From the sequence record MZ234012.1: 44,450 bases of DNA; one strand, written 5' to 3'. Position numbers and translations under genes: made by a program. Shown one piece after another: positions 14,717 to 17,439 of this stretch. The notes under the pieces were generated by a model that was not told where the DNA came from, did not search any database, and saw only the letters and a program-made list of their open reading frames with translations. Source of the DNA: Escherichia phage vB_EcoP-101101UKE1. Each line of letters begins with the position of its first letter. Position 1 is the stretch's first letter.

Positions 14717-15716
14717 GCTTCGCAGCTTGTACAAAGACTCCGAGGTACTTGATGCAATCGAGCAAGCTACCGACGAGAAAGGTAATGTTAATTATAATGA
14801 GATGGCACGTGTATTATCGTGTCACCCTGTGGGTAAGAAGATTACCCGCCAGTTGGCTCGATACTGGCATGGTCAATTCAAGAAGACCAAGAAGAAAGGT
14901 GATTATTACCAGACCCTTCTGCAAGAAGATAAGCGTATCAAAGAAGAGCGTAAGCTCAGGACTCCTGACCGCTACGAGGATTTGGCTATTGTACCATTGC
15001 CTGACTCGCCTCATCGAAGTGTACTGGTAATCCCTGATACTCATGCACCTTATGAGCATCCAGATACCTTAGAGTTCCTTGCAGCAGTCGCGGCACGTTA
15101 CCGTCCAGATACAGTGGTTCACTTAGGAGATGAGGCAGATAAACACGCCCTCTCCTTCCATGACTCTGACCCTAATCTGGATAGTGCTGGCATGGAGCTA
15201 GAGAAGGCTCGTGTCTTCATGCACAAGTTGCACAAGATGTTCCCTGTGATGCGCCTGTGTCATTCTAATCACGGCTCTATGCACTTCCGTAAGGCAAGCG
15301 CCAAGGGTATTCCAGTGCAATATCTTCGCACCTACCGTGAAGTCTTTTTCCCAAATGGAGGTGGCGACCAGTGGGATTGGCAGCATACACATGTTCTTGA
15401 GTTGCCGAATGGTGAACAAGTGGCATTCAAGCATCAACCTGCTGGCTCTGTCCTAGCAGATGCAGCGCATGAGCGTATGAACCTTGTGTGTGGTCACTTG
15501 CACGGTAAGATGTCTGTGGAGTACGCACGTAATACACATGAACAGTATTGGGCTGTGCAAGGTGGCTGCTTAATTGATGAGTCATCCCGTGCATTTGCCT
15601 ATGGTCGTGAGTCTAAATACAAGCCAGCATTAGGTTGTGTGGTCATTCTGGAGGGTGTGCCTCACATTGTCCCGATGCAAACCAATAGCGACAACCGTTG
15701 GATTGGCAAGATTTAG
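14709..15716 (+). CDS. calcineurin-like metallophosphoesterase with ~100-aa N-terminal extension
   Basis: Phosphoesterase motifs IPDTHAPYEHPD (DxH), HLGDEAD (GD), HSNHG (NH) and CGHLHG (GHxH). Probable TTG start at 14709 after RBS aaggagg; the track ORF opens at 14577. Confidence 0.75.
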   Translation: MGKLRSLYKDSEVLDAIEQATDEKGNVNYNEMARVLSCHPVGKKITRQLARYWHGQFKKTKKKGDYYQTLLQEDKRIKEERKLRTPDRYEDLAIVPLPDSPHRSVLVIPDTHAPYEHPDTLEFLAAVAARYRPDTVVHLGDEADKHALSFHDSDPNLDSAGMELEKARVFMHKLHKMFPVMRLCHSNHGSMHFRKASAKGIPVQYLRTYREVFFPNGGGDQWDWQHTHVLELPNGEQVAFKHQPAGSVLADAAHERMNLVCGHLHGKMSVEYARNTHEQYWAVQGGCLIDESSRAFAYGRESKYKPALGCVVILEGVPHIVPMQTNSDNRWIGKI

Positions 15717-15734
15717 TTGACACTATAGAACAAA
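15711..15734 (+). promoter_or_regulatory. phage RNAP promoter (ATTTAGTTGACACTATAGAACAAA)
   Basis: One mismatch from the SP6 promoter core ATTTAGGTGACACTATAGAA. Overlaps the phosphoesterase stop codon. Confidence 0.75.
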
Positions 15735-15816
15735 GGGTTAGGTAAGACTTTATCGGCTGGCGTATCCAAATGATATTGCACTAGCCCTTGATTGTATAGT
15801 GAATGGAGGATTCAAT

Positions 15817-16320
15817 ATGTCACACTATGAATGTAAGAAGTGTCATAAGCGTTATGATTACTGTACTTGTGGTCAAGAGAAAACATCTTTTAAAGTTGGA
15901 GACAAGGTATTTCGTAATGAAAAAGATTCGATTCCTTGGAATCAATACTGCAAAGAAGCTGGTATTGACCCTGATAACCCTGTAACCATAGATGATATTG
16001 ATGGCATTAACTTGTGCTTTCGTGAGGTGAGAGGTACAGGTTGGGATTCCAAAAAATTCAAACTTGCATCTGATAAGTTAGACAACAATATGGTAACTCA
16101 GCCTAAGCACTACGAGTTCTTTGATGGTGTAGAGGCAATCACTATCATTGCCCGCAGTATGACTGAAAAGCAATTCGCTGGGTACTGCATGGGTAATGCC
16201 CTTAAGTATCGCCTGCGTGCAGGTAAGAAGTTCAATACTGAAGAAGACTTGAAGAAGGCAGACTATTATAAAGAGTTATTCCAGAAGCATCGTCACGAAT
16301 GTATTGATGAGGATATTTAA
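15817..16320 (+). CDS. conserved phage protein with N-terminal zinc ribbon (possibly DUF3310-like)
   Basis: CxxC...CxCG ribbon YECKKCHKRYDYCTCG, then PKHY...GNALKYRLRAGKK. RBS ggagga 6 nt before ATG 15817. Confidence 0.5.
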   Translation: MSHYECKKCHKRYDYCTCGQEKTSFKVGDKVFRNEKDSIPWNQYCKEAGIDPDNPVTIDDIDGINLCFREVRGTGWDSKKFKLASDKLDNNMVTQPKHYEFFDGVEAITIIARSMTEKQFAGYCMGNALKYRLRAGKKFNTEEDLKKADYYKELFQKHRHECIDEDI

Positions 16321-16321
16321 T

Positions 16322-16495
16322 ATGGAAGGTAAACTGTATAGAGGGTGCTTCGGTAACTTATATAAAGTAAGCCCTCGCGGTTTTGTATTGACCTCTGATG
16401 ATGAAGGTGCAATGTGGCACCTAAGTGCATATGGTTCTAACTTAGCATACTTTAAAGAGGCAATAGTCAAAGGTGTGATGAAGGAGGTGAAATGA
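16322..16495 (+). CDS. hypothetical small protein (57 aa)
   Basis: RBS gagga. Its stop overlaps the ligase start (ATGA). Confidence 0.3.
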   Translation: MEGKLYRGCFGNLYKVSPRGFVLTSDDEGAMWHLSAYGSNLAYFKEAIVKGVMKEVK

Positions 16496-17439
16496 ACATC
16501 TTCCAATTCCTAGGTCTTCCAGAAGACCACCGCAATCATCCATTCATGCTGGTGAAGCATCGCGGTGAAGTTCCTGAGAAGAAACTTACTTTTCCATGTT
16601 ATGCACAGGTGAAACGAGATGGAATATTCAGTGCTGTTGTGGTGCGCAATGATGGTGCTGTTGCCATCTTTGGTCGTACTGGTAAGAAGCTCGCAAATGT
16701 TGAATCCTTGGAAAAGACGTTTAGTGTATTTCCTGTCGGGTTGTATCTTGGTGAGTTGCAATCTATGGCTGTTGATGTTTATCTTGAAGCTCTGTCAGGA
16801 GTGGTAAACCCTAATCGTACAGAGCCACTTGACTTCATAGGCCAGCAGATTAAAGACAACCTGTATATCGACTTCTTCGATATGTTAACTATTAAGGCAT
16901 TCCATGATGGATTCACTGATGTTTCTTATCTCAAACGTTACGATGCTTTACATCGTCGTATCGGCACTCATCTTAGCGGGTGCAACGCTATCCTTCCTAT
17001 CACTCCTTGCCATAATGAGCGAGAAGTTGAAGCGTTTGCGCAAGAGCAAATAGATGCAGGACGTGAGGGTGCTGTATTCAAACTGGACTGCGATTATGAA
17101 GCAGGACACAAAGGTTATCGTCAGACTAAAGAAGTCCGTAAGGTAACTTATGACCTTACTTGTATTGGCTTTGAAGAAGGTAAAGGTAAATACAAAGGTA
17201 AGGTAGCTAACCTCATTTTCAAGTGGAAAGGGGGCAAGACAATCAAAGCTATGCTCGGTAAAGGGTGGACTCATGCAGATGCAGAACAGATGTTCCACGA
17301 TATTAAACATGGCGGACGGTTGAATGTCATTGGTAAAATCTTTGAAGTCAAAGGTCTTCAGGATTCAAGCAAGGGCAACATTCGTCTGCCCAAAGCGGGA
17401 GAATTAAGACATGACAAAGATGAACCAGATTTCTTTTGA
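16492..17439 (+). CDS. ATP-dependent DNA ligase
   Basis: Adenylation motif QVKRDGIF (KxDG), size 315 aa, and position after the exonuclease/endonuclease block. Confidence 0.85.
   Translation: MNIFQFLGLPEDHRNHPFMLVKHRGEVPEKKLTFPCYAQVKRDGIFSAVVVRNDGAVAIFGRTGKKLANVESLEKTFSVFPVGLYLGELQSMAVDVYLEALSGVVNPNRTEPLDFIGQQIKDNLYIDFFDMLTIKAFHDGFTDVSYLKRYDALHRRIGTHLSGCNAILPITPCHNEREVEAFAQEQIDAGREGAVFKLDCDYEAGHKGYRQTKEVRKVTYDLTCIGFEEGKGKYKGKVANLIFKWKGGKTIKAMLGKGWTHADAEQMFHDIKHGGRLNVIGKIFEVKGLQDSSKGNIRLPKAGELRHDKDEPDFF

Follow-up and report, generated by a model that had tools for sequence, protein, structure and literature searches.

Which function is encoded by the 167-codon gene that lies upstream of the DNA ligase gene of Escherichia phage vB_EcoP-101101UKE1, and which part of its product carries that function? 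The genome (sequence record MZ234012.1), which we analysed as a single window of 44,450 nucleotides, is that of a K1-5-like coliphage of the genus Vectrevirus (Autographiviridae), and the list of open reading frames confirms a 167-aa ORF at 15817-16320 (+).

The gene and its expression signals

The gene is genuine and probably well expressed, but it is ordinary and already known, and the gene call itself adds nothing new. Bases 15600-16500 match 86 phage records at high identity, with Escherichia phage vB-Eco-KMB47 being 99.9% identical over this interval, and the KMB47 protein WPK27944.1, which carries the GenBank label 'nucleotide kinase Gp1.7', is identical to the ORF product at 166 of 167 positions (99%). 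K1-5 gp23 and other Vectrevirus 'nucleotide kinase' genes, such as that of KMB47, correspond to this gene in both identity and location, with essentially no difference (97-99.9% DNA and 99% protein identity), and many Vectrevirus records include near-identical genes under this label, named after T7 gp1.7 and annotated as gp1.7-type kinases. The local gene order is exonuclease, endonuclease, phosphoesterase, the 167-aa ORF, a small ORF, and DNA ligase, which places the gene, with a phage promoter upstream, in the middle (DNA-metabolism) block; this context supports a DNA-precursor role. The small ORF is variable, being found in KMB47 and absent from R4596, where the ligase gene directly follows the putative kinase gene; its ATG is one base past the kinase stop codon (16318-16320), such that the two may be translationally coupled.

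The AAPEc6 homologue is annotated as two ORFs (A0A1P8BK44 and A0A1P8BK45 in BFVD), one for the N-terminal portion (87 aa, 92% identical) and one for DUF3310 (92 aa, 98% identical). The gene may be split in nature, or the division may stem from a frameshift or an error in sequencing.

The promoter upstream of the gene (Table 1) fits the phage's own promoter family, ATTTAC(C/T)GGACACTATAGAAG, about 12 good copies of which are distributed across the 44,450-nt genome, all on the plus strand; allowing up to three mismatches, the core motif occurs 18 times, compared with 5.5 occurrences expected by chance. Transcription would start at G15728, a position that we presume from the SP6 promoter, and the message would then have an 89-nt leader. 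The preliminary description of this locus, prepared from the DNA letters, had proposed that the gene has its own promoter 80 nt upstream and a strong ribosome binding site; both signals are borne out, the latter as a GGAGG 7 nt before the ATG, with the distance corrected to the 89 nt of the predicted leader rather than ~80. Neither sigma-70 promoters nor terminators are enriched in its surroundings. The metallophosphoesterase gene upstream ends with a TAG (15714-15716) that falls within the promoter ATTTAGTTGACACTATAG (15711-15733), so that coding requirements constrain the sequence of the promoter.

The leader can be folded into a long, imperfect hairpin (15733-15789; -24.7 kcal/mol) that is not significantly more stable than shuffled sequences (z -1.5), and an Rfam search of the leader matched no family. 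The hairpin could be a candidate site for RNase III, such sites being known from T7-like phages. At the equivalent position in R4596 the depositors annotated a putative terminator.

Table 1. Coordinates of features at the gp1.7-family locus, numbered from the first base of the window.
Feature	Coordinates	Strand	Evidence
Promoter for the phage RNA polymerase, SP6/K1-5 type, ATTTAGTTGACACTATAGAACAA	15711..15733	+	Exact core TTGACACTATAGAA; ~12 sibling promoters
5' leader, 89 nt (predicted), with possible hairpin 15733-15789	15728..15816	+	RNA folding
Shine-Dalgarno GGAGG, 7-nt spacer to ATG at 15817	15805..15809	+	Sequence
CDS, gp1.7-family (DUF3310) putative nucleotide kinase, 167 aa	15817..16320	+	ORF list, WPK27944.1 identity, Pfam and PHROGs
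Cys4 module, aa 6-18, presumed zinc knuckle	15832..15870	+	Identical Cys spacing in homologue clusters
Putative SH3/KOW-like small beta-barrel, aa 24-83, motif FKVGDxVxR...W...C...F.V	15886..16065	+	
Low-confidence, disordered linker, aa 84-92	16066..16092	+	pLDDT <50 at aa 87-90; coincides with downstream recombination breakpoint
DUF3310 domain, short strand then three helices; conserved to C162	16093..16302	+	Pfam, T7 alignment, AlphaFold2, conservation
Small ORF, 57 aa, variable, separate from the kinase gene	16322..16495	+	ORF list; comparison with KMB47

A DUF3310 domain shared with T7 gp1.7

The C-terminal part of the protein (aa 93-152) matches the Pfam profile PF11753 (DUF3310) with an E value of 3.1e-25 and a score of 88.4 bits, well over the gathering cut-off of 24, and the alignment covers profile positions 1-59 of 60. 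This is the sole Pfam match in the 167-aa protein, and a search of it against NCBIfam gave no match. The two motifs PKHY (aa 96-99) and GNALKYRLRAGKK (aa 126-138) are both inside the domain. The preliminary description had suggested DUF3310 as a possibility, to be checked by an HMM search against the Pfam DUF families, and this assignment stands.

DUF3310 is also the domain that is shared with T7 gp1.7 (NP_041967.1), which scores on the profile at aa 122-184. BLASTP aligns the two proteins at 64% identity over 73 aa (E 9e-31) and aligns nothing outside aa 93-162 of the Vectrevirus protein, the N-terminal 90 aa being unrelated; the two agree at all positions that are invariant in the family alignment. 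Three PHROGs labelled 'nucleotide kinase' (1689, 2585, and 236) match at E values of 5e-44 to 1e-22. According to the secondary literature, T7 gp1.7 phosphorylates dTMP and dGMP with no need for a divalent cation, and is unrelated to other nucleotide kinases (PMC7693777, PMC11897194, PMC12846349). Assignment to the gp1.7 family thus largely overturns the view in the preliminary description that the core has no known function: gp1.7 is a characterised kinase, PHROGs and GenBank both use the name 'nucleotide kinase', and membership of a well-characterised housekeeping family, which that description had named as the outcome that would count against it, is largely what was found.

Conservation was assessed in 144 sequences, comprising the domain itself and 143 representatives of clusters formed at 50% identity. 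The near-invariant residues are P96, H98, Y99, E106, G122, C124, G126, N127, K130, Y131, R132, R134, G136, K138, K147, Y151, and C162, and the signature P-x-H-Y...G-x-C-x-G-N-x-x-K-Y-R-x-R-x-G-x-K...K-x3-Y is complete in our protein, with each position conserved in at least 133 of the 144 sequences. The cluster of basic residues within it is a plausible phosphate-binding site, and H98, Y99, E106, N127, K130, R132, R134, K138, and K147 are candidates for the active site.

Three of these residues, C124 (16186-16188), C162 (16300-16302), and H98 (16108-16110), which lie within DUF3310 or immediately beyond it, are conserved in 133-139 of the 144 sequences. They could form a second metal site or a disulphide, or include a catalytic residue; the papers that we examined describe nothing on C124, C162, or H98.

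An AlphaFold2 model built with 103 homologues (mean pLDDT 80) predicts that the C-terminal unit is a short strand followed by three helices (aa 100-161). Searches of the PDB with the protein sequence and with the family profile gave no significant match, and a fold search with the DUF3310 domain identified no significant solved relative; fold matches in BFVD are to proteins named 'Nucleotide kinase', 'DUF3310 domain-containing', and 'SaV-like'.

The family is large. We found 218 homologues at E values of 1e-5 or better, an exhaustive search yielded 4181 DUF3310 clusters at 50% identity, and tblastn located the family in 1373 of 50,697 phage records. In almost all members the domain forms the C-terminus, located behind unrelated N-termini of 0 to ~270 aa, and in 10 of 143 and 4 of 121 cases it is essentially alone, with fewer than 25 aa preceding it. 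DUF3310 thus appears from these comparisons to be an autonomous domain. These data also bear on whether the ORF or the Cys motif within it could have arisen by chance or be a remnant without function, for which the single favourable observation is the two-ORF annotation in AAPEc6, showing that the gene can be disrupted. The numbers of homologues, clusters, and phage records, the strong purifying conservation, and the presence of a dedicated promoter and ribosome binding site all argue against it; the conservation refutes the idea, and we give it practically no weight.

T7 gene 1.7 offers a further view of where the function is located. It contains an internal AAGGAG followed after 8 nt by an in-frame ATG at codon 42 (L001 781-792), consistent with a second, N-terminally shortened form of gp1.7 that does not include its CxxC...HxC motif. 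Tran et al. reportedly described in 2012 a shorter gp1.7 that lacks the Cys motif and is equally active, within the studies of the nucleotide kinase by Tran, Richardson, and co-workers (2008-2014). Reading of the Vectrevirus gene reveals no evident counterpart of the internal start at T7 codon 42. The location of DUF3310 behind unrelated N-termini, its occurrence alone, and the T7 internal start indicate that the function is probably in the DUF3310 domain.

We therefore consider it rather probable, by analogy with gp1.7, that the 167-aa protein is a dNMP kinase with accessory N-terminal modules and supplies precursors for phage DNA synthesis. The C-terminal three-helix DUF3310 domain (~75 aa) would be the functional core, phosphorylating dTMP and dGMP to the diphosphates without a divalent metal, and the enzyme would help to recycle deoxynucleoside monophosphates set free from host DNA into phage DNA synthesis, with the phage RNA polymerase transcribing the gene from its own promoter in the middle block. 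The proposed reaction (dNMP to dNDP) is of the same class as that of the classical P-loop NMP kinases (Tmk, Gmk, and T4 gp1), but there is no similarity to these in sequence or fold; the Walker A motif that is typical of them is absent, and for gp1.7 independence of metal has been reported (PMC7693777). Neither Walker A (GxxxxGK[ST]) nor another known nucleotide-binding motif is present in the 167-aa sequence, and no kinase family in Pfam or NCBIfam and no kinase fold in the structure search was matched. We hold the kinase interpretation with restraint because the homology is limited to the C-terminal 73 aa, there is no nucleotide-binding motif, no report in the literature that we found maps the kinase active site to DUF3310 or describes a structure, and other phenotypes are associated with DUF3310 proteins, including the defence-related roles of gp1.7. 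The measurements of kinase activity are those on T7 gp1.7.

Modules and exchange at the N-terminus

The N-terminus of the protein contains the motif C6-x2-C9-x6-C16-x-C18. Among 121 homologue clusters, 35 start with M-S-H-Y-x-C-x2-C-x6-C-x-C with all four cysteines equally spaced (consensus MSHYxCxxCxxRxDxCxC), so that the Cys4 motif is a true conserved module and did not arise by chance. In some homologues (P0036, P0090, and P0100) it is joined directly to DUF3310 with no intervening barrel. The two knuckles, C6-x2-C9 and C16-x-C18, supply four putative metal ligands that are invariant in the 35 clusters, and the module presumably binds zinc. The AlphaFold2 model assigns aa 1-20 a pLDDT of ~73 and almost no regular structure, with isolated bridge residues and one short turn, and none of the zinc-ribbon families in Pfam was matched at E values up to 10.

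We considered a classical zinc ribbon for this segment and rejected it. The ligands span 13 aa, compared with a typical minimum of 20-30, and neither the hairpins nor the three-stranded sheet of a ribbon is seen; four cysteines within 13 residues are too short for such a fold, and 'Cys4 zinc knuckle' is thus the better label. The preliminary description was therefore correct in proposing a Cys4 module fused to DUF3310 and not in calling it a zinc ribbon, and its two-part layout missed a third element, a predicted SH3-like barrel that separates the Cys module from DUF3310.

This small barrel (aa 24-83) is predicted by AlphaFold2 with a pLDDT of 80-88, and a fold search shows some resemblance to KOW, Tudor, and L24-type folds. 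Other homologues, such as P0078, have two or three barrels in tandem. Searches for other protein contexts using the N-terminal 91 aa and the SH3-like profile returned either DUF3310 proteins only or nothing. A search of the PDB with the SH3-like profile yielded only matches, among them chains 8vvi_A and 7z15_I, to the TEV site and Strep-tag (ENLYFQG...WSHPQFEK) of recombinant constructs; these are an artefact of the tags, not homology, and were discarded.

The barrel and the Cys4 module raise the question of whether the protein is mainly a regulatory or structural one, binding nucleic acid or the replisome through these two modules and using DUF3310 for oligomerisation. The conservation of the Cys4 motif, the apparent similarity of the barrel to KOW, Tudor, and L24-type folds, which are often RNA or protein binders, and the position of the gene among replication and recombination genes would all suit such a role, which we nonetheless judge to be quite unlikely. 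In the dNMP kinase interpretation that we favour, the Cys4 knuckle and the SH3-like barrel would be accessory, exchangeable modules, probably acting in partner or nucleic-acid binding or in assembly, and not in catalysis.

The 167-aa protein and T7 gp1.7 both have a C-terminal DUF3310 and, towards the N-terminus, a motif rich in Cys (CxxC...CxC in the former, and an analogous CxxC-x10-HxC at aa 21-35 in the latter), and both genes are in a DNA-metabolism region near the ligase gene and are transcribed by the phage polymerase. In contrast, the N-terminal 90-120 aa of the two are non-homologous, and T7 gp1.7 lacks the SH3-like barrel, carrying instead a second Cys cluster, CGILCSNVPCHLC.

Among related phages, 66 cluster representatives share 90% identity or more with the C-terminal 77 aa of the 167-aa protein. 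Grouped at 50% identity, their N-terminal halves form at least 10 types, and in types other than that of the 167-aa protein the barrel region has only 18-38% identity to its own; DUF3310 is mostly 94-100% identical among related phages while the N-terminus is swapped, and in other Vectrevirus genomes this domain is preceded by other N-terminal cassettes. At the DNA level, R4596 shows ~90% identity as far as 15871 and from 16088 onwards, and the homology of PDP21P6 runs to 15822 and resumes, at 96%, from 16070, such that the segment between these breakpoints (15822/15871 and 16070/16088) is replaced in both. R4596 has retained the Cys4 knuckle and has exchanged the barrel for a second Cys-rich segment. 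An exchangeable cassette (15823-16087) thus makes up the N-terminal half of the gene; the swapping is ordinary phage mosaicism, sharply confined to one half of one gene. Mosaicism at the level of domains is the one feature of the locus that is not obvious from existing annotation.

Links to host defence and toxicity

Several DUF3310 proteins have been described in contexts other than nucleotide metabolism. SaV of the lactococcal phages is a DUF3310 protein that determines sensitivity to AbiV, and is an early protein that binds AbiV and is toxic in both L. lactis and E. coli (PMC8306868, PMC13064643). In screens by overexpression, DUF3310 proteins of mycobacteriophages rank with the most cytotoxic, with Waterfoul gp47 and Hammy gp54 being among the strongest growth inhibitors (PMC9339283, PMC10700055). 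T7 gp1.7 is an activator of the NADase EfAvs5 (PMC11897194), carries mutations in T7 escapers of retron Ec48 (10.1101/2020.06.21.156273), and is among the ORFs chosen for follow-up with wild ECOR E. coli in a trigger-screen preprint (10.1101/2025.07.02.662641).

These phenotypes suggest that the protein could instead be mainly a host-takeover or toxic factor like SaV, which binds a host target or perturbs nucleotide pools, and in which kinase activity is absent or secondary. SaV shares DUF3310 with the 167-aa protein and is likewise an early or middle phage protein, and 'SaV-like' proteins are among the fold matches (the 167-aa model matches them in BFVD at E 5e-6). However, SaV, whose known properties are toxicity and the binding and triggering of AbiV and do not include kinase activity, belongs to a distant subfamily without the Cys4 and SH3-like modules, and the domain in our protein is far closer to T7 gp1.7 (64%) than to SaV-type members. 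Toxicity on overexpression would also be expected of a reversible nucleotide kinase that unbalances pools, and gp1.7 alone gave no significant inhibition of E. coli growth in the EfAvs5 study (PMC11897194). We regard a primary role of this kind as unlikely, and retain the gp1.7-type kinase as the preferred interpretation.

Since the conserved half of the protein is a known defence trigger, the exchange of the other half can be interpreted as the product of an arms race, an idea that we regard as decidedly speculative and quite unlikely. The DUF3310 core would be a recurrent pattern that is sensed by host defences (EfAvs5 and AbiV), with the inhibition of certain wild E. coli strains by gp1.7 as a further example, and the N-terminal cassettes (a Cys4 knuckle, one to three SH3-like barrels, or a second Cys cluster) would mask the core from sensors or retarget it to other partners, leaving the essential kinase core unchanged.

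Two points of interest belong to the family and not to this locus. One is how a helical domain of 75 aa would act as a nucleotide kinase that needs no metal, neither a solved structure nor a mapped active site of DUF3310 having come to light in our searches. The other is that family members recur as defence triggers: the combination of abortive-infection triggering and N-terminal swapping could inform how these phages trade off enzyme function against visibility to immunity.
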